From IMG/VR virus record IMGVR_UViG_3300020190_000004: DNA of 64,000 nt; one strand, 5' to 3'. Source of the stretch: a virus. Its lineage: Duplodnaviria; Caudoviricetes. The first letter of the stretch is position 1; the number at the start of each line of letters is the position of its first letter. The translations under genes and the position numbers were made by a program. Below the pieces are notes generated by a model, which did no database searches, had not been told where the DNA came from, and saw only the letters and a program-made list of their open reading frames with translations. Shown one piece after another: positions 28,317-63,655 of this stretch.

Positions 28317-28508
28317 TTAATACCTTTGGACAGTAGAACGATTGATTTGATCACTGCCGTCTTTCTCTTGGTCGTATTCTTTGCCAGGTTCATTTGTGTC
28401 TATGGAAAAGACTTCTTTTCCATGTGCGTACTTTTTGCCTTTTTTCATAACATGCTTGTCATGCAAGTCACCTATGAATTCTTCAAATGTTTTTATAGGT
28501 TTTTTCAT
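28317..28508 (-). CDS. CTS-like tagged microprotein
   Basis: MKKPIKTFEEFIGDL. Confidence 0.65.
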   Translation of the reverse strand: MKKPIKTFEEFIGDLHDKHVMKKGKKYAHGKEVFSIDTNEPGKEYDQEKDGSDQINRSTVQRY

Positions 28509-28696
28509 ATTCCTCCAAACGGATAAGCAGCAGTAGCTGTCTCTTCATCGTCACCGTAGTAAGTAGGATTTTGCGTATCAGGGTCTAAGAACAGCTCGTC
28601 ACCGTCTTTCTCTTCTTCGCGATCAGCGAGTTTTCTGAGTTTTCTTGTCTCCAAGTCGCCGATAAAATCTTCAAACGTAGGTACTCGTTTTTTCAT
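28505..28696 (-). CDS. CTS-like tagged microprotein
   Basis: MKKRVPTFEDFIGDL. Confidence 0.65.
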   Translation of the reverse strand: MKKRVPTFEDFIGDLETRKLRKLADREEEKDGDELFLDPDTQNPTYYGDDEETATAAYPFGGI

Positions 28697-55799: not shown

Positions 55800-56702
55800 T
55801 TATTGTTTTATTTTGTTTATCGTTTTTTGTACCGGGGAAGTCTCCATAGAAATATCACGAGACTTCCAGTAAGATTTTCCATAAGAGATAAAAATCTCTT
55901 CGCCTGGTTCAATATCCCGCAGAGCATAAAAACTGATTGTCTTTTTCTCTGTATTTATTTTCCAGTCAGCCATAGGTTGATTTCTATGATTATACAAAGA
56001 AGCATTCCCAAACGCAATAGCGTATAGAGAGTCGTCAAGTTTAAACACATAGTCCATAACAACAGTACCCGTTATCTGATCTTTTGGAATTACAAGAAGA
56101 GGAGCAACTTCAAAGCACTCACCATTCTTGATGTAATCTACACAGAAAACTCCAGCAGCATCTACACTAGATTTTCCAACGCCTATCTTGTCCCAGACTT
56201 TTACCGAAGCCGATCTTCGAAGTTTGCCTTGCGGTTCACTGATGTAAACTACTGAATTAACAGGTTCTTTCTTAGTATCACCGCCAAGGGATTCAAACGT
56301 CTTTTGAATCCTTCGAGTAATGTTATTCTTTTTTAATACTTCTTTAACTTGTTCGTCAAATTGACTGAATATCTGTAGCAGATCAGCGTTAAGAGTGTCT
56401 TGTCTATCTTCTATGATTTTTTCAATGTTTTTCATAGCAGATTGCTTAGATTCTTCAGTAGAATCCGCAAGATCATTTATGATGCTCATCTGCGTTACCA
56501 ACTCTTCATCAGCGGTAAACTTGTATGTAGTACCGCCTTTCGAGTAGAGTTCCATTACAACAGAACCTGTTGAGTCAGGGTTTCTTAAGGCATCAAAACT
56601 GATTGTTGGCGGCTTAAGACCTCCTCCGGTGAAGTCGAATTTAATCTCGCCTTCACGCTCAATCAGAGCTTCTGTAAGATATTCATAATAAGTCTTAATC
56701 AT
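55800..56702 (-). CDS. SET-domain protein-lysine methyltransferase with CTS-like tag
   Basis: MIKTYYEYLTE; SSVDAAGVFC, GNASLYNHRNQPM, ALRDIEPGEEIFISYG. Confidence 0.85.
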   Translation of the reverse strand: MIKTYYEYLTEALIEREGEIKFDFTGGGLKPPTISFDALRNPDSTGSVVMELYSKGGTTYKFTADEELVTQMSIINDLADSTEESKQSAMKNIEKIIEDRQDTLNADLLQIFSQFDEQVKEVLKKNNITRRIQKTFESLGGDTKKEPVNSVVYISEPQGKLRRSASVKVWDKIGVGKSSVDAAGVFCVDYIKNGECFEVAPLLVIPKDQITGTVVMDYVFKLDDSLYAIAFGNASLYNHRNQPMADWKINTEKKTISFYALRDIEPGEEIFISYGKSYWKSRDISMETSPVQKTINKIKQ

Positions 56703-59017
56703 TATTTCTTATTAGCCATGAAGTCTTCAAACTTCATTATTTTCCTTGGTGAAGCAGGTGCATCTTCTTCAGTTTTCTTGATGATCACTTCTTCTTCTTC
56801 CTCTTCCTTATCTTCGGGTTTGTCTTCAACCTTGTCCTCAGGTTTGTCTTCAACCTTGTCCTCGGGTTTGTCTTCAACCTTGTCCTCAGGTTTGTCTTCA
56901 ACCTTGTCTTCAGGTTTATCACTCGCCTCAGGTTTGTCTTCAACCTTGTCTTCGGGTTTGTCTTCAACCTTGTCCTCAGGTTTATCACTCGCCTCAGGTT
57001 TGTCTTCATCCTTGTCTTCAGGTTTGTCACTCGCCTCAGGTTTGTCTTCAACCTTGTCCTCAGGTTTGTCTTCAGGTTTATCACTCGCCTCAGGTTTGTC
57101 TTCAACCTTGTCTTCAGGTTTGTCACTCGCCTCAGGTTTGTCTTCAACCTTGTCCTCAGGTTTGTCTTCTTTTTTCTTTTCTTTATCGTCAGTAGTTTCA
57201 TCTTCTAAATCATCAAGAATATCATCATCTTTAGATTCAGTTACTTTACTGACTTTCATATTCATAAAATCTGAAAATTTCATAATGGTTTTGTTTGTTG
57301 TATTATTTATATTATTGATTTCTTCCTCAATAGAAGCCCAGAAACTTTCTGATTCTTCTCCTTCGCCAAGATTCTTACCACTTTTGATTTTATCGATAAG
57401 TTCCTTATAGCGTTTAATTTTGTCTTCATCACCTTTTTCTTCAGCCTTTGCAAGACCAGCTTCTGCTTTAGCAATTTTTTCTTTTTGCTTATCGCCAAGT
57501 TCTTCGGAATCTTCACCCTCTGGTTTTTCTTCCTTTGTTGCTGCCTTTAGATCTCCTCTTGCAACTTCTACAGCAGAACTAGCATCTTTTATACCTTCAT
57601 CATCACCTTCCGCTTCAGCCTTTTTTAATTGTTGCAATTTAATTTTTAACTCTATGGCCAAAACATCTGGGTGTTTTGAAGAATTTAGCTCTTCGCTCTT
57701 AGACTTTTTTTCGTCCTTTAATTTTTCAATTTCAGCATTTATAGCTTCAACCTCTTCGGCGTTAACTTCTTTCTTGTCAGATTCTTCTTCGCCGCCAGAC
57801 TTTGCTGTAGCTATTTTTTGTTTAACTTCGTTAGCCTTTAAGATAGGGCTGTATTGTTCTAGGTTATAATCTTTTAATTCAGGCTTTAAAGTATTAGATG
57901 TATAATACGTTTTCTTACCTTCTTCATTGCTAGGCACTTCTTCAATAGCGTTAGGATCAGCACCGCCTAATTCTAATACTTGTTTTGTTGCTGTTTTTCC
58001 TTTTACTTTATCCCACAAGGCTTTCTTTGCTTCAAAGAAAGCTGTATAAGCATCAATGTATTTGTCTGTTGCCGCATCTAATGTATCAAGAAGCCCTTTT
58101 CTATCTTCTGCTTTATCATCAGAAATCGCCATGATGTGAGAATAAACTTGACCTGGTGTTTTTGAATCACTGTCAGATTCAAGTATAGGATATTCCAACA
58201 AACCGTATTCAAGCATTAGCGTATTATAAGAAAAGTCAGAATCATCTCCTTCGATAAGCTTGTCAGCTTGAACATAAATGGTAGCTAGTTCGCCTCTTAC
58301 TTGTGCTAAAGGTCTACCTGTTTTTTGGATAGCTTCAATTTCGTTTTCACAAGAAAGCTTGTTAAGAATTTCAGCGTCTTCTTGATCGCTTTCTCCTTCT
58401 TGTTCAGCTTCTCCCAATGCTTCTTCTGCTTGTCTAGTGTCTTCCTCAGCTTGAGAAGCTTGTTCCGCCATTGCTTCAGCTCTTTCTTGTTTCCCTTCAG
58501 CATTAAGAACTTTTTCAAGTTTACTAAAACCTTCCTGTTTTGCCTTTTGGTCAGCCAATTTCATTTTCTTATTTATGATAGCATCTAAGTCAGGCACTGC
58601 TCTAAGTGCTTCTTTTTCTTCACCAATCTCATCTTTAAGATTGATTAGTGCATCACCAAGTTGCTGTTTGATTGTGTTTTGGCTATTCTTGAGTTTATCA
58701 ATTTCTGTTGCAATTTTTTCAAGCTTATCTTCCAAACCAGGTTTTCCGCTATCCCTTAAAGCCGCAATTTGTTTTTTCTTAGGTAAAATTTTTGCACGTA
58801 TAGTAGCGTCAATGCTATTGCTGTCTGCCTTTATTGCAAGTTGCTCATAATTACCTAATTTTGCGTAAGCTTTTCCGAATGCAACATACCCTCTAAGTTT
58901 TGCAAGAACTTCTTTGAAATTAAACTCTTCATTTAATTTCCCCAGTTCGATAAAAGATTGACTTTCAGATACGACATATTTCTTATTTGCCACATAGTCT
59001 GCAAATTTCATATTCAC
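56702..59017 (-). CDS. 771-aa acidic helical protein with C-terminal KPE repeats (putative prohead core/internal protein)
   Basis: MNMKFADY..., internal MKFSDF, terminal MKFEDF; directly downstream of the major capsid gene with a late promoter. Confidence 0.6.
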   Translation of the reverse strand: MNMKFADYVANKKYVVSESQSFIELGKLNEEFNFKEVLAKLRGYVAFGKAYAKLGNYEQLAIKADSNSIDATIRAKILPKKKQIAALRDSGKPGLEDKLEKIATEIDKLKNSQNTIKQQLGDALINLKDEIGEEKEALRAVPDLDAIINKKMKLADQKAKQEGFSKLEKVLNAEGKQERAEAMAEQASQAEEDTRQAEEALGEAEQEGESDQEDAEILNKLSCENEIEAIQKTGRPLAQVRGELATIYVQADKLIEGDDSDFSYNTLMLEYGLLEYPILESDSDSKTPGQVYSHIMAISDDKAEDRKGLLDTLDAATDKYIDAYTAFFEAKKALWDKVKGKTATKQVLELGGADPNAIEEVPSNEEGKKTYYTSNTLKPELKDYNLEQYSPILKANEVKQKIATAKSGGEEESDKKEVNAEEVEAINAEIEKLKDEKKSKSEELNSSKHPDVLAIELKIKLQQLKKAEAEGDDEGIKDASSAVEVARGDLKAATKEEKPEGEDSEELGDKQKEKIAKAEAGLAKAEEKGDEDKIKRYKELIDKIKSGKNLGEGEESESFWASIEEEINNINNTTNKTIMKFSDFMNMKVSKVTESKDDDILDDLEDETTDDKEKKKEDKPEDKVEDKPEASDKPEDKVEDKPEASDKPEDKPEDKVEDKPEASDKPEDKDEDKPEASDKPEDKVEDKPEDKVEDKPEASDKPEDKVEDKPEDKVEDKPEDKVEDKPEDKVEDKPEDKEEEEEEVIIKKTEEDAPASPRKIMKFEDFMANKK
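56808..57169 (-). repeat. Tandem array of 24-nt (KPEDKVED) and 18-nt (KPEASD) units
   Basis: 9 x KPEDKVED, 1 x KPEDKDED, 5 x KPEASD plus two partial units. Confidence 0.95.
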
Positions 59018-59038: not shown

Positions 59039-59047
59039 GTATATATC
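59039..59047 (-). promoter_or_regulatory. Late-type promoter GATATATAC
   Basis: Upstream of ATG 59017. Confidence 0.65.
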
Positions 59048-59071: not shown

Positions 59072-59099
59072 AAAAAAAGAGGATCCGAAGATCCTCTTT
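59072..59099 (-). terminator. Intrinsic terminator with UUCG loop after the major capsid gene
   Basis: AAAGAGGATC-TTCG-GATCCTCTTT followed by a T run. Confidence 0.9.
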
Positions 59100-59121: not shown

Positions 59122-61047
59122 TTAAGCAATAGAGACAGAGTTTGGTGCAGACCACCATGCAGCGTTACCGTCCTTAAGGTTAACCAAAAGGGTGAAGTAT
59201 TGAGTTTCAGGGTGGAAACCAGCTTCAACAAGAGCGTAGCGAGATTTAACCGCGATTTTAGGGCTCATTGTGCCTTCAGCGATAGTCTGAATAGATTCAG
59301 CCATCAAGTAAGGCATGAATTTCAATCCTGGCTCTTCGTCAGCACCTTTACGTCCTACAAGGATACGAGTATCATCATAGTTCATGTTAGGGTCAACGTA
59401 GATAGTCAAACCAGCAAGAGTTCCTAATGGATAAAGAGCTCCGTTGTTTTGGTTAACTGTGTTAGCCAATGGATAGAAAGTAAATTGAGCACTGTCTTGA
59501 AGAGCAGTAGCCATTTGCAAGTTAGTAACTACGAAGTTACCTGGACCACGACGACCGCGTTGTGCAATCACGTTAGCAGCAGCTAAGATTTTAGATTGTA
59601 CACGACGTTGGATAGTTCCTTGGTTTTCAAATGCAGCTGATGAACCACCGTAGAGTTGGAATGCTGGGACTGTAATTGTCACCAATGCACCAGTTTGTCC
59701 GATGAACTGCGCAGATGTAACCGGAGTAGCACCAGTAGATAACTGCAAGTTTAAGTTAGTACCTTCAACGCTTGCAAAGTTAGAGTGGTTTTGCCATCCT
59801 AATGCGAATGCACGAGAAAGGATGTGCTTGTTGATAGATTGAGAAATCTCGTTTACAAGAGCGTTTTCCATCATCGATACCACATCGATTCCGTACTGAC
59901 GGTTCAAGTCTTGAATTTGCTCAGTTGTTACTTGTGCAGCAACTTGGAAAGTCTCAGCTTCTACGAACTTAGTGAAAGCTTGTAAGCCCATAGTTCTGTA
60001 GTAAGAAGTCTCACCAACACCGCGACGCATTGGCTCGTAAGCGTAACGACCGTCAGTAGCATTACCAGAGTACTCTTCATCGTCGTTTGGTCCTGAACCA
60101 GCGAATCCTTGGATGTGATCTTCAAGACCACGAACCAATTCAGCATAAAATTGTGTTGCAGCAGCAGCGTTGAAGTTGTTAGCAGCAGCGTTTGCTGGAA
60201 CTGTAACAGTCCATGCAGTACCGCTACCACCAGCAATCGTTGCTATCGGGAATACATAAGTTATTGCAGGACTACCAATTACTTCATAGAAATTAACAGT
60301 TTGTGTGCTAGCACTTTGAGGAGAAAGGTCTGTTAGGGCGACAGTACCTGCCGCTGCAGGGATCGTAACGTTAAGACCTTCACCTACTACGTTAAAGATT
60401 GGAAAACCGTCAATGCGAGACAGACCTACGAACTGTACAAGAATTGCTTCAGCGTTTGCGGCGGAGTTATCTCCCGTTGATAAGAGGTAGTAAGCACCTG
60501 TTGTTACAAGTCTCCACAAAGCTGACGTATTCAAGTTAGCGCCAAAACCTGTTGGGTTCAACTTAAACAATTTGAACTTGTCGGTGAAACGAGAAGAGTT
60601 TGCTACAGCAGTACCACCGATAGCAGGGTTTGAGTTACCAAGACCTGGAGCAAATGGATCACGTCCACCAGCGTATACGTAGTCTAAGTAAGTAAGAACT
60701 CCTGAAGGGCCGTTCATAGGAACAACAGATACGATGTCGAATCCAATTGTACGAGCGGCAACCTGAATTGCAAGTGGCAACAAAGATGGGAATTTATCGC
60801 CTGATCCTTTTGAACCAGCTCCGTAGAAGTTAGCAGCACCACCAGCTACAGTAGAAGCTGGAGTAACGTTACCCATTCCTGGAGTGTTGAAAAGAGATGC
60901 TTGAGGGTATGAAAAGCCCTCGTTTAATGAGTGGTAGTGAGCATATTTACTCATCCACTTTAATTTGTTTGATTCATTGATTCCGGTTTTTTCTTCGATA
61001 ATCGGAGACCATGTTTCAAACACCTGTGCTTCGTTTAAAAGTTGCAT
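59122..61047 (-). CDS. Major capsid protein, T4 gp23-like, with a large insertion
   Basis: LLPLAIQVAARTIGFDIVSVVPMNGPSG, LNRQYGIDVVSMMENALVNEISQSINKHIL, RRGPGNFVV, FMPY, PKIAVKSRYAL. Confidence 0.93.
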   Translation of the reverse strand: MQLLNEAQVFETWSPIIEEKTGINESNKLKWMSKYAHYHSLNEGFSYPQASLFNTPGMGNVTPASTVAGGAANFYGAGSKGSGDKFPSLLPLAIQVAARTIGFDIVSVVPMNGPSGVLTYLDYVYAGGRDPFAPGLGNSNPAIGGTAVANSSRFTDKFKLFKLNPTGFGANLNTSALWRLVTTGAYYLLSTGDNSAANAEAILVQFVGLSRIDGFPIFNVVGEGLNVTIPAAAGTVALTDLSPQSASTQTVNFYEVIGSPAITYVFPIATIAGGSGTAWTVTVPANAAANNFNAAAATQFYAELVRGLEDHIQGFAGSGPNDDEEYSGNATDGRYAYEPMRRGVGETSYYRTMGLQAFTKFVEAETFQVAAQVTTEQIQDLNRQYGIDVVSMMENALVNEISQSINKHILSRAFALGWQNHSNFASVEGTNLNLQLSTGATPVTSAQFIGQTGALVTITVPAFQLYGGSSAAFENQGTIQRRVQSKILAAANVIAQRGRRGPGNFVVTNLQMATALQDSAQFTFYPLANTVNQNNGALYPLGTLAGLTIYVDPNMNYDDTRILVGRKGADEEPGLKFMPYLMAESIQTIAEGTMSPKIAVKSRYALVEAGFHPETQYFTLLVNLKDGNAAWWSAPNSVSIA

Positions 61048-61079: not shown

Positions 61080-62939
61080 TTAGTTGTTAAAGCGTTTGCC
61101 TAAACTTTCAGAGATTGCTGACAAGTAATCGCTTGAGTAACCAAGTGCGTTTGCTGCCTTAGCTGCTTCAACGCGAGCACTTTCATTAATTCCTGAAGTT
61201 TCTTCAGCTGGTTTGCCTAAACCACGTGTTTGCCAGAAGTTTTTAATTTGGTAAGAAGATTCCAATCTGTACATCTTTGCTTGACGAGTAATACGATCTT
61301 TCATATCAGCAGAAGAACTTTCCCAAAGCGGTAAGTATTCAACTGGCATTTCAGATAGCCATTTCTCGTTTACTTCAACAGATGCAAGAGCAGTTTCCCA
61401 TACTTTACTAATTCTTTCTTCGTCAAATGATGGGTTTTTGTCCAGCGCGTTTGCGACCCTTTTCTTATCGGTCTCACTCAAAGCAAAAAACTCGGCTTTC
61501 TTAGATTCGCCAAGGAATTGCGTGAACGGATAACCACTGTTTTGATTTTTCATCTCTGTCTTTTGTTTTTGGACAGACTCAAGAACAGCTTGAATTTTAT
61601 TGTCTAATGAAGCGTAACGCCCCATGATGTTGTTTTCTTTAACCGCGTTGTTTAACATTCCGCGATCTTCTTTATCTTCAGATACATCAGCAGTTTTTCC
61701 ATCGGGTTTAATTGAACCGTGATTTTCAAACATGTACTCAGCGTATTCTGTAAGATTTTTAAAGTCTTCTTGTGAAGCAGCGTTTTCAGCTAAATACTCA
61801 CTGTAACGGATAGCGTTATCTGCGTGTTCAGCGATATGCTCTGAATATGAAATACCTTGGTCAAGTTTCTCAGCGATGTGCTCAGCGTAACCAATAGTCT
61901 GATTCATCTTTTCAGACAAGTACTCACCGTAACGAATGCTTTCATCAACTTTACCGGCTACGTACTCTATGTATTGTACACCGTTGTCAGATTTCTCAGC
62001 AACCATTTCGCTGTATTGAATTCCGCGATCTGCTTTTTCAGCAACGTATTCTGCGTAAGCAATGCCTTGTCCAAGCTTTTCAGCTAGATAGTTAGAATAA
62101 GAAAGAGCTTTGTTTTGAGCTTCAGCAAGGTAGCTTGCGTACTTCTTGATGTTATCGAGCTCTTCTTCCAATTGACTAATTTTTTCGTTTGTGTCGTTGC
62201 TTTCAGAAATTTTAGACAAACGATCATTGATCTTTTGAATCTCTTCTTTAAGAACCAATGAGTATTTGTTCATTTCTTCAACCGATACAAACTCTGTATT
62301 TGTTTTTTCCATGTTATTTTTGTTTGTTTTTTCTGCGGTTTCAGTATATATCTCTTCTTTGAAAGCTTCCAAGAAAGCTGGAAACTCTGTAGTTACATCG
62401 TAAATAGCAACAGTGTCATCGTGATTGTCGAATCCAAAGCTTTCATTTACTTTGCTAAGCTGTGCGTTCTCAAAACCAGGATCAGCTACAAGATCATAAG
62501 TAAAGATTCTCTTGATTTGTACTTTCTTGTTTTCTCCGACTACACCAGCTGCGCGTGAAGAGATTGAAATAGGAACACCTGTGTCAACCAAATTTTTAGC
62601 GATTTGGCCAGAAGGTGTATCAAGAAGTTTAATTCTTCCAACGATTTGACGTTTCTTAGCGTCGTATTTAACATCCTCTACGAGGTGAGAAACTTTTGAT
62701 AGCGAGATATCAAATTTATCTGGGTGGTCAAGTTCTCCTAATAGGCGATTCTCCTGAATCTTCTTTTTAAGATAATCTAAGTGAGGCAGGTATTCCTTTT
62801 CTTCATAGATCCTGTGATTGTTGTTTTCCACTCCGAACTGCGCAAAGACGCCTTCAAGAACGTACTCATCATTAGTCTTATTTACGTTTAGGTTTTCCCC
62901 AGAACGCTCAAGAATCATTAATAATTTTTTGTTACTCAT
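61080..62939 (-). CDS. Prohead protease (gp21-like) fused to prohead core scaffold (gp22-like)
   Basis: LEGVFAQFGVENNNHRIY, GELDHP, ISSRAAG, TYDLVADPGF; C-terminal 14-residue coiled-coil repeats. Confidence 0.88.
   Translation of the reverse strand: MSNKKLLMILERSGENLNVNKTNDEYVLEGVFAQFGVENNNHRIYEEKEYLPHLDYLKKKIQENRLLGELDHPDKFDISLSKVSHLVEDVKYDAKKRQIVGRIKLLDTPSGQIAKNLVDTGVPISISSRAAGVVGENKKVQIKRIFTYDLVADPGFENAQLSKVNESFGFDNHDDTVAIYDVTTEFPAFLEAFKEEIYTETAEKTNKNNMEKTNTEFVSVEEMNKYSLVLKEEIQKINDRLSKISESNDTNEKISQLEEELDNIKKYASYLAEAQNKALSYSNYLAEKLGQGIAYAEYVAEKADRGIQYSEMVAEKSDNGVQYIEYVAGKVDESIRYGEYLSEKMNQTIGYAEHIAEKLDQGISYSEHIAEHADNAIRYSEYLAENAASQEDFKNLTEYAEYMFENHGSIKPDGKTADVSEDKEDRGMLNNAVKENNIMGRYASLDNKIQAVLESVQKQKTEMKNQNSGYPFTQFLGESKKAEFFALSETDKKRVANALDKNPSFDEERISKVWETALASVEVNEKWLSEMPVEYLPLWESSSADMKDRITRQAKMYRLESSYQIKNFWQTRGLGKPAEETSGINESARVEAAKAANALGYSSDYLSAISESLGKRFNN
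62344..62352 (-). promoter_or_regulatory. Internal late-type promoter GATATATAC ahead of in-frame ATG 62312 (nested scaffold)
   Basis: Exact motif, then A-rich leader AAAAAACAAACAAAAATAAC-ATG, at the protease/scaffold junction. Confidence 0.6.
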
Positions 62940-62970: not shown

Positions 62971-62979
62971 GTATATATC
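62971..62979 (-). promoter_or_regulatory. Late-type promoter GATATATAC
   Basis: Upstream of the protease gene. Confidence 0.65.
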
Positions 62980-63013: not shown

Positions 63014-63655
63014 TTACTTTTTAAAGATGGCGCGAATCACCACTGGGTTTCTTTCGCCAAACGGGGCCAGGTCAGCGGATTGTTGAATAAACTCGGGGCG
63101 GTAACCTATTGTTTTAACTCTTGAGACAAAATCTTCAAGTACGTTAAAGCGACGGTAGTGCCCATCGTATATCCATTCGTAGTCACTAATCTTTTCTCCT
63201 CGCTCGCAGATCTCATCATAGTTGGAACGCGTCTCAACCATAAAAACTCCTCCTTCGTTTAGCATTTCATATACATTGCTAAGAACGGTGTTTTCTGAAT
63301 CTTGGTCTACACTGTGAAGAGTAAAGCGTGAATAGATGACATCATATTTTCCGCTTTTGAGCTCCGTAAAGTCTGCACAGAAATAATCTACAGCAGTTTC
63401 TTTTCTTTGTAATTCACTGATTGATGTTTCCGACAGATCGCAAGCAGTAACATTATGCCAAAGGGCTAGATGCTCTGAGTCTCTTCCGTTTCCACACCCG
63501 ATTTCTAATATGTTTACTTTTCTACCGTTAAAGATCTCGTTAATCTTAGCGCTGCAAAATGTTGCAAAATGTGAAGGAGTAGATATCTCAGATTTGTGCT
63601 GATTCTTCTGGTAGTAATTGTTCCAGTAGTTTTTATCTTTTATGTGTGCGTTCAT
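63014..63655 (-). CDS. Class I SAM-dependent methyltransferase
   Basis: ILEIGCGNGRDS, DVIYSRFTLH, LNEGGVF. Confidence 0.88.
   Translation of the reverse strand: MNAHIKDKNYWNNYYQKNQHKSEISTPSHFATFCSAKINEIFNGRKVNILEIGCGNGRDSEHLALWHNVTACDLSETSISELQRKETAVDYFCADFTELKSGKYDVIYSRFTLHSVDQDSENTVLSNVYEMLNEGGVFMVETRSNYDEICERGEKISDYEWIYDGHYRRFNVLEDFVSRVKTIGYRPEFIQQSADLAPFGERNPVVIRAIFKK

Follow-up and report, generated by a model that had tools for sequence, protein, structure and literature searches.

The window analysed here, a stretch of viral DNA 64,000 nucleotides long, encodes on its minus strand a 300-residue protein (P0001) in which a SET domain follows a second module and an N-terminal leader of the phage T4 capsid-targeting type. 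The ORF is a fusion of a tagged 129-aa gene and a SET gene, which in most relatives are separate and overlap at an ATGA. We regard the chances as evenly balanced that the product is a capsid-loaded, protease-trimmed and injected lysine methyltransferase, a reading drawn from sequence, structural models and analogy that would make it comparable to T4 Alt and to the virion-packaged vSET. The parts of the ORF are as follows (all on the minus strand; an arrow marks a putative cut).

55800..56702, minus: fused ORF P0001, 300 aa, with leader, N-module, linker and SET domain (ATG start)
56670..56702, minus: capsid-targeting-like leader, residues 1-11 MIKTYYEYLTE, ending in an L-T-E↓A site of the gp21 type (pattern enrichment, matrix rank)
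56316..56669, minus: N-module, residues 12 to ~129, a stand-alone 129-130-aa gene in relatives (AF2 pLDDT 73)
56313..56315, minus: fusion point, codon R130 at the place of the split SET gene's ATG, with the upstream stop codon lost (DNA alignment)
56193..56312, minus: linker, residues 131-170, predicted to be disordered (pLDDT 45-58)
from 56306, minus: remnant half-tag of the SET gene, QKTFESLGGD, in the linker (matrix rank 12)
56235-56243, minus: candidate second protease site I154-S155-E156↓P, in the linker
55878..56153, minus: SET domain, residues 184-275 (Pfam, conservation, vSET profile E 5e-36, Foldseek)
55986-55991, minus: N238-H239 codons
55881-55883, minus: catalytic Y274 codon

A minimal vSET-like SET domain

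Residues 184-275 match the Pfam SET family (PF00856; E 2.1e-12, 47.8 bits against a cut-off of 22.4), and include or adjoin an xxG motif (A182-A183-G184), N238-H239 followed by P243, and G267-E-E-I-F-I-S-Y274-G275. Among 102 aligned homologs, G184, E198, Y218, F220, G232, N238, H239, E269, Y274 and G275 are each conserved in at least 90%. In the GxG motif only the second Gly (G184) is kept; the first position holds Ala in this protein and varies within the family, whereas vSET has G-Y-G. The SAM-binding N-H, the catalytic Tyr (Y274 in GEEIFISYG) and the lysine-channel Tyr (Y218) align with FNHS, ISYG and EDYLF of vSET, respectively.

When the family profile is compared with solved structures, the best match is PBCV-1 vSET over its whole length (E 5.3e-36), followed by Schizosaccharomyces pombe Set7 and Plasmodium PFL0690c. 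The homologs of the N-module were misplaced in two alignments of the full-length protein, with 11-20% apparent identity as opposed to 61-87% by BLAST, and the two modules were therefore folded separately. The AlphaFold model of residues 131-300 has pLDDT 89-96 over the SET core (~171-270), and the top Foldseek match of this core is again vSET (TM 0.91, target-normalised; rmsd 1.4 Å; 104 columns, 32% identity). The predicted model has the SET beta-fold with its C-terminal pseudoknot, and its top matches, all with a Foldseek probability of 1.00, are vSET, PFL0690c, S. pombe Set7 and MLL1. A comparison with L018, a diverged homolog, gives a dN/dS of ~0.04 in the SET part and ~0.05 in the N-terminal part, both approximate ratios as dS is ~1.7 and near saturation; strong purifying selection on the SET part is well supported by these sequence comparisons. 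In PHROGs, neither the SET ORF nor any of the five genes nearest to it has a family.

A reading of the sequence made before this analysis, without database searches (the sequence-only reading), had described intact SET motifs and a SET-domain lysine methyltransferase. All of the motifs that it named are present, together with a Pfam match above threshold, and the predicted identity is backed by Pfam, the vSET profile, the fold model and the conserved residues. Assignment as a minimal vSET-like SET protein-lysine methyltransferase with intact catalytic residues is thus well supported by sequence and model, and the enzyme looks active.

Fusion of a tagged gene and a SET gene

The nearest homologs are SET proteins of 165-173 aa, which cover the C-terminal 55% of the ORF alone at no more than 87% identity. 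In the syntenic relatives L001 and L002 the gene order is protease, capsid protein, 695-aa acidic protein, 129-aa gene and 169-aa SET gene; the 129-aa gene starts MVKNYYEYLTEA, the SET gene starts MIDFKTFESLG, and the overlap of the two is the ATGA. Compared with these, the junction in the window has several substitutions and a net gain of 1 nt, which produce ...KKNNIT-RRIQ-KTFESLG.... The N-module occurs as a stand-alone protein of 129-130 aa in at least 8 clusters, and the exact 300-aa fused protein is present in 22 contigs from at least 7 lake samples, besides two 300-aa variants that differ by a single residue.

Two simpler accounts of the fused ORF were rejected. A sequencing or assembly artefact is ruled out by the multi-substitution junction, the 22 contigs, the at least 7 samples and the two variants. 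An internal start yielding an untagged SET protein is likewise ruled out, as there is no Met from residue 90 to M216, which is already within the SET fold; with no Met between the junction and M216, SET could be made solely as the fusion.

The N-module itself has no recognisable family or fold: the best Foldseek match in the PDB has an E value of 0.28, the best Z in a wide VIA-align search is 5.0, and nothing usable was obtained from Atlas either by shape or by features. A complex prediction for the SET core and the N-module scored 0.00, which is uninformative on binding either way.

The fused protein contains L/I-x-E sites at residues 9-11, 13-15, 96-98 and 154-156. The last of these, Y-I-S-E↓P, is matched in split SET proteins of the MIDF type by Y-[ILM]-x-E↓P, at their residues 24-26. 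In the closest relatives, split SET genes begin with MIDF[KR]TFESLG, a half tag without L/I-x-E at positions 8-10, and the head loading of these MIDF-type proteins in their own right is uncertain. By comparison, four clusters of SET proteins with a canonical tag have [IL]-x-E at 8-10 together with [IL]-[AS]-D-P at the second site. The pattern is complementary in two or three lineages, in that lack of a site at 8-10 is paired with [ILM]xE-P at the second site. We offer the hypothesis, for which this pattern is only suggestive, of a movable propeptide boundary that would let the protease re-separate the fused modules. At the candidate second site the residue at P1' is Pro, which is unusual and disfavoured by many proteases.

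A leader of the T4 capsid-targeting type

The leader is common to ~13 unrelated ORFs in the window. A loose tag pattern has 11 matches in the six-frame translation of the window, ten of them at ORF starts (shuffle expectation 0.22), and on a weight matrix trained on nine other tags, with the SET ORF left out, the SET N-terminus (IKTYYEYLTE) ranks 14th among 73,568 positions; the T4 CTS itself would rank ~21st. The 13 tagged proteins have no BLAST similarity past residue 16, and the leader is thus a module and not a sign of paralogy. Within the N-module family (13 members), E11-A12 is invariant, the aromatic and aliphatic leader positions are conservative and the remaining positions vary, such that an aromatic-x-x-aromatic-[LIV]-x-E-A pattern is invariant or conservative throughout.

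The leader of the SET ORF (K-T-Y-Y-E-Y-L-T-E↓A) and the T4 CTS (K-T-Y-Q-E-F-I-A-E↓A) have the same K, T, Y, E and E, with conservative F/Y and I/L differences, and MIKTYYEYLTEA is the counterpart in this ORF of T4 MKTYQEFIAE. The latter sequence, the first ten residues of T4 IPIII, is enough for head loading; within the T4 CTS residues 4 and 7 act in targeting and residues 8 and 10 in cleavage, and Asp at position 10 blocks processing. The gp21 protease of T4 cleaves after L/I-x-E, a site that the end of the leader (L9-T10-E11↓A12) fits. At the level of sequence there is good support for this N-terminus as a capsid-targeting leader of the T4 type, in a genome that also encodes a protease of the gp21 type and a capsid of the gp23 type.

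The MIKTYYEYLTE tag described in the sequence-only reading is therefore genuine and above chance, both in the placement of pattern matches at ORF starts and in its matrix rank. The further statement that SET carries a packaging tag holds for the ORF, which does have the leader, but the tag belongs to an upstream gene that is separate in most relatives and is fused here. The tag and the SET domain are ~170 residues apart, and the two modules are separate genes in most relatives.

Position within the head module

The SET ORF belongs to a minus-strand block in the order S77 protease, Gp23 capsid protein, 771-aa acidic protein, SET. Its neighbours and the nearby signals are as follows.

61080..62939, minus: prohead protease of the T4 gp21 type (Peptidase_S77, E 3.8e-11), with a long C-terminal extension
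59122..61047, minus: major capsid protein, T4 gp23 family (Pfam Gp23, E 3e-42)
56702..59017, minus: 771-aa acidic repeat protein, a scaffold-like candidate, upstream of SET
55512..55796, minus: 94-aa tagged ORF MKTFGEFIGK..., downstream, starting 3 nt past the SET stop codon (matrix rank 13)
62972-62979, minus: GATATATA element before the protease gene
59040..59047, minus: GATATATA element ~24 nt 5' of the ATG of the 771-aa gene, candidate late promoter of the SET unit
59076..59099, minus: terminator-like hairpin directly past the capsid gene
54125..54151, minus: strong terminator-like hairpin at the end of the block

The stop codon of the 771-aa gene and the start codon of SET overlap in TAATG, and only the 3 nt noted above separate SET from the tagged gene that follows. 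The GATATATA element has 10 matches in the window, all on the minus strand, against 1.98 expected, and none of 100 shuffles reaches 10; other sites precede a tagged gene and genes for the tail or baseplate. There is no enrichment in the window of TATAAATA, the octamer of T4 late promoters (3 matches, 5.3 expected), and a sigma-70 scan of the window is at or below the shuffle level. Because of the TAATG coupling and the presence of GATATATA at structural genes, SET is probably co-transcribed with the acidic protein under an element that structural genes use, as judged from the sequence. A location in the late head operon, which the sequence-only reading had also proposed, is supported by the gene order, the translational coupling and the GATATATA element common to structural genes.

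The 771-aa protein has a net charge of -73, 16% lysine and long DKPEDKVE-type repeats, and no family match in Pfam or PHROGs. It sits where a gp22-like scaffolding core would be expected, and contains tag-like motifs: MKFxDF is present at the N-terminus, at residue 577 and 11 residues before the C-terminus, and the C-terminal copy is kept in relatives (KIMKFEDFM..., FMKFEEYIAHK). From its sequence, it may be a scaffold whose own helices the cargo tag imitates, or may contain nested starts.

The 94-aa tagged ORF is rich in Cys, Met and Glu. It is found in close relatives, and both it and the N-module are missing from diverged lineages; the two look like variable-cargo insertions into a conserved block.

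The source phage and the recurrence of tagged SET genes

A 16 kb segment had no Megablast match among 50,697 phage records. Relatives of the capsid protein, at 30-44% identity, are from an uncultured 462-kb phage, the Lak megaphages of Prevotella, Tenacibaculum phages PTm1 and PTm5, Sphingomonas phage PAU, and Chryseobacterium and Flavobacterium phages. The longest contig with the SET protein is 238 kb, and the stretch is present in 22 lake-water metagenome runs. The source is an uncultured giant lake phage related to T4, and by analogy with its phage relatives the host is probably a Bacteroidota bacterium.

A survey of SET genes with this tag, which had been proposed along with the sequence-only reading, found the full tag directly on SET in three diverged lineages. 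In an exhaustive search (2,532 relatives) and its follow-up, these SET proteins start MKKFLEFINE, MITFTEFITE or MRTFDNFLNE; a follow-up search for more lineages of canonical-tag SET proteins gave the four clusters only. Two of the diverged tagged lineages have SET in the same slot, following protease, capsid protein and a ~400-aa acidic protein, with 64-69% capsid identity to the window, and in the third SET is within an array of tagged genes.

Untagged SET genes outside head modules are present in Stenotrophomonas phage Moby (103 aa) and in a 735-kb uncultured phage. The Moby protein (L009 2585-2896) has N-S-S in place of N-H-S and ends right past the Tyr motif, and from its sequence may be inactive or different in function.

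Proposed role and alternatives

Sequence and models show the SET identity with its catalytic residues conserved, the gene fusion, an enriched leader motif, the types of protease and capsid and a gene position that is conserved; from these we infer packaging, cleavage, activity, injection and a target as follows. The SET fusion would be made late in infection alongside the head-core proteins, and its N-terminal 11 residues would act like the T4 CTS and bring it into the assembling prohead core. The gp21-type protease would then cut after L9-T10-E11, removing the leader, and may cut after I154-S155-E156 too, parting the two fused modules again. The enzyme would stay in the filled head, reach the cytoplasm of what is probably a Bacteroidota host together with the DNA, and methylate lysines of a host protein before any phage gene expression, the most precedented kind of target being a nucleoid-associated protein. 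In this phage SET would reach the head on the tag of a fused neighbouring cargo gene, and in sister lineages with a tag of its own. The candidate targets, as named in the sequence-only reading, are host nucleoid, translation or defence proteins, or virion proteins, and none of the tool results separates them.

A packaged enzyme might instead act at home, on lysines of the phage's own head-core, internal cargo or capsid proteins, as a head-maturation enzyme and not a host effector, which we consider unlikely. The lysine-rich 771-aa protein is an example of a possible substrate, in which methylation could alter charge, protease sensitivity or DNA interaction; SET is translationally coupled to this protein with its 16% lysine, keeps a fixed slot behind the genes for protease, capsid and acidic protein in lineages with as little as 64% capsid identity, and would be placed by the tag in one compartment with such substrates. 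However, SAM would be needed inside the prohead or during its assembly, one relative has SET in a tagged-cargo array that is not beside recognisable head genes, literature searches gave no precedent of a SET enzyme maturing phage heads, and the closest relative, vSET, acts on host chromatin. About equally improbable in our estimate is an unpackaged, late cytoplasmic methyltransferase whose N-terminal motif has another role or none, such as a cassette-recombination leader or a translation-initiation context. The untagged SET genes of Moby and the 735-kb phage, outside head modules, do indicate that phage SET enzymes need not be cargo, and the closest split SET genes have a partial tag only. Such an account has to contend with a motif that is conserved at the protein level while other positions vary, sits on unrelated proteins, agrees with the T4 signal, as defined by experiment, at its key residues, and is found in full directly on SET in three diverged lineages.

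It is very unlikely that the SET fold has been kept in something other than a lysine methyltransferase, i.e. a structural or binding cargo or an enzyme for a non-protein substrate. The first Gly of GxG is not conserved in the family, as might be expected of such a protein, but the N-H, the catalytic Tyr of E-E-I-x-x-S-Y-G and Y218 are at least 90% conserved, dN/dS is ~0.04, and the core model is close to the active vSET. Within the preferred reading of a packaged and injected methyltransferase, a bolder form, which we hold to be doubtful, is that the enzyme rewrites the methylation of a host nucleoid or transcription protein within seconds of infection, as a bacterial counterpart of vSET, and that tagged genes fuse and split as the cargo set of the phage evolves, while the prohead protease re-cuts fused precursors at the conserved I-x-E↓P. 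If true, fused and split forms would coexist because the protease re-cuts the fused precursor at this site.

Comparison with known systems

The closest solved relative by both profile and fold is vSET (A612L of PBCV-1), an H3K27 methyltransferase. Both it and the phage protein have a SET core without pre- or post-SET domains and both are from large DNA viruses, and vSET is packaged in the chlorovirus virion for use at the start of infection (chlorovirus review). They differ in that the phage SET is fused to a 130-residue module, and the proposed route via a T4-type cleavable leader is unrelated to chlorovirus assembly. The presumed host here is bacterial and without histones, so the substrate must differ and the specificity for H3K27 cannot be the same.

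The tagged proteins of the window resemble T4 IPI, IPII and IPIII in having a ~10-residue leader that ends L/I-x-E then Ala, on many unrelated proteins, and in being encoded together with a protease of the gp21 type and a capsid of the gp23 type. IPI, IPII and IPIII are themselves small and basic, and IPI is a restriction inhibitor and not an enzyme, whereas the candidate cargo here is a 33-kDa two-module enzyme. The SET gene is also within the head module, unlike the T4 internal-protein genes, which sit outside it.

T4 Alt is a packaged enzyme that is processed by gp21, and is the functional analogue that we propose: a protein-modifying enzyme that gp21 trims in a head of the T4 type and that arrives with the DNA, ahead of phage gene expression. 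The two would differ in chemistry (lysine methylation as opposed to arginine ADP-ribosylation), and their folds are unrelated. Alt is injected, and its target is RNA polymerase.

The best precedent for a bacterial target is given by two small SET enzymes that methylate prokaryotic nucleoid-associated proteins: cpnSET of Chlamydia pneumoniae, which methylates Hc1, and Go1-SET of Methanosarcina mazei, which methylates MC1-alpha. In contrast to the phage protein, these are cellular, act in their own cell, have no leader and are not virion-delivered.

Literature searches turned up no SET enzyme described as cargo of a phage head. Capsid targeting by a CTS, cargo enzymes such as Alt, and SET enzymes of viruses are already known; new here are the SET enzyme as candidate cargo, its history of fusion and fission, its conserved slot in the head module and the candidate processing sites. 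Work on T4 has established that any protein can be loaded into the head by a ten-residue leader, and a restriction inhibitor and an ADP-ribosyltransferase are among the cargo found there in nature. If confirmed, a SET methyltransferase carried naturally in this way would be a new chemistry among the activities that phages deliver at infection and the first phage parallel to virion-packaged chlorovirus vSET, and would point to takeover of the host through lysine methylation of bacterial proteins. Together, fused and split forms represent a natural experiment on the shuffling of tagged cargo genes, and the leader and SET core are small and readily tested in T4 packaging systems and standard methyltransferase assays.

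Other genes near the head module

Between the 94-aa tagged ORF and the end of the block are tandem paralogs of 130 and 132 aa (MATLKSTLKIESTDIFPTPV...; 54171-54993, minus strand), which have their own GATATATA element at 55054-55061 and are followed by the terminator at 54151-54125. A homolog is present downstream of SET in every relative examined. The two proteins are beta-rich, lysine-poor and without a family match, and are probably an abundant structural or decoration protein.

A further GATATATA element (62345-62352, minus strand) is inside the protease ORF, upstream of its long, coiled-coil-like C-terminal extension. Directly upstream of the protease is a class-I SAM methyltransferase (63014-63655, minus strand), which in relatives (L001 1-3377) comes after genes for a TPP-dependent enzyme, a nucleotidyltransferase and an aminotransferase, a set beside the head genes that resembles a phosphonate or modified-sugar pathway. 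Additional short and strongly tagged ORFs, MKKPIKTFEEFIGD and MKKRVPTFEDFIGD, are located elsewhere in the window at 28317-28544 and ~28684, respectively, both on the minus strand. Downstream of the head block (51561-54073, minus strand) there is a run of enzymes comprising a metallophosphoesterase, a cytidylyltransferase-like protein, a 2OG-Fe(II) oxygenase (seen in relatives) and an FKBP-type isomerase, the order of which is conserved in L001.
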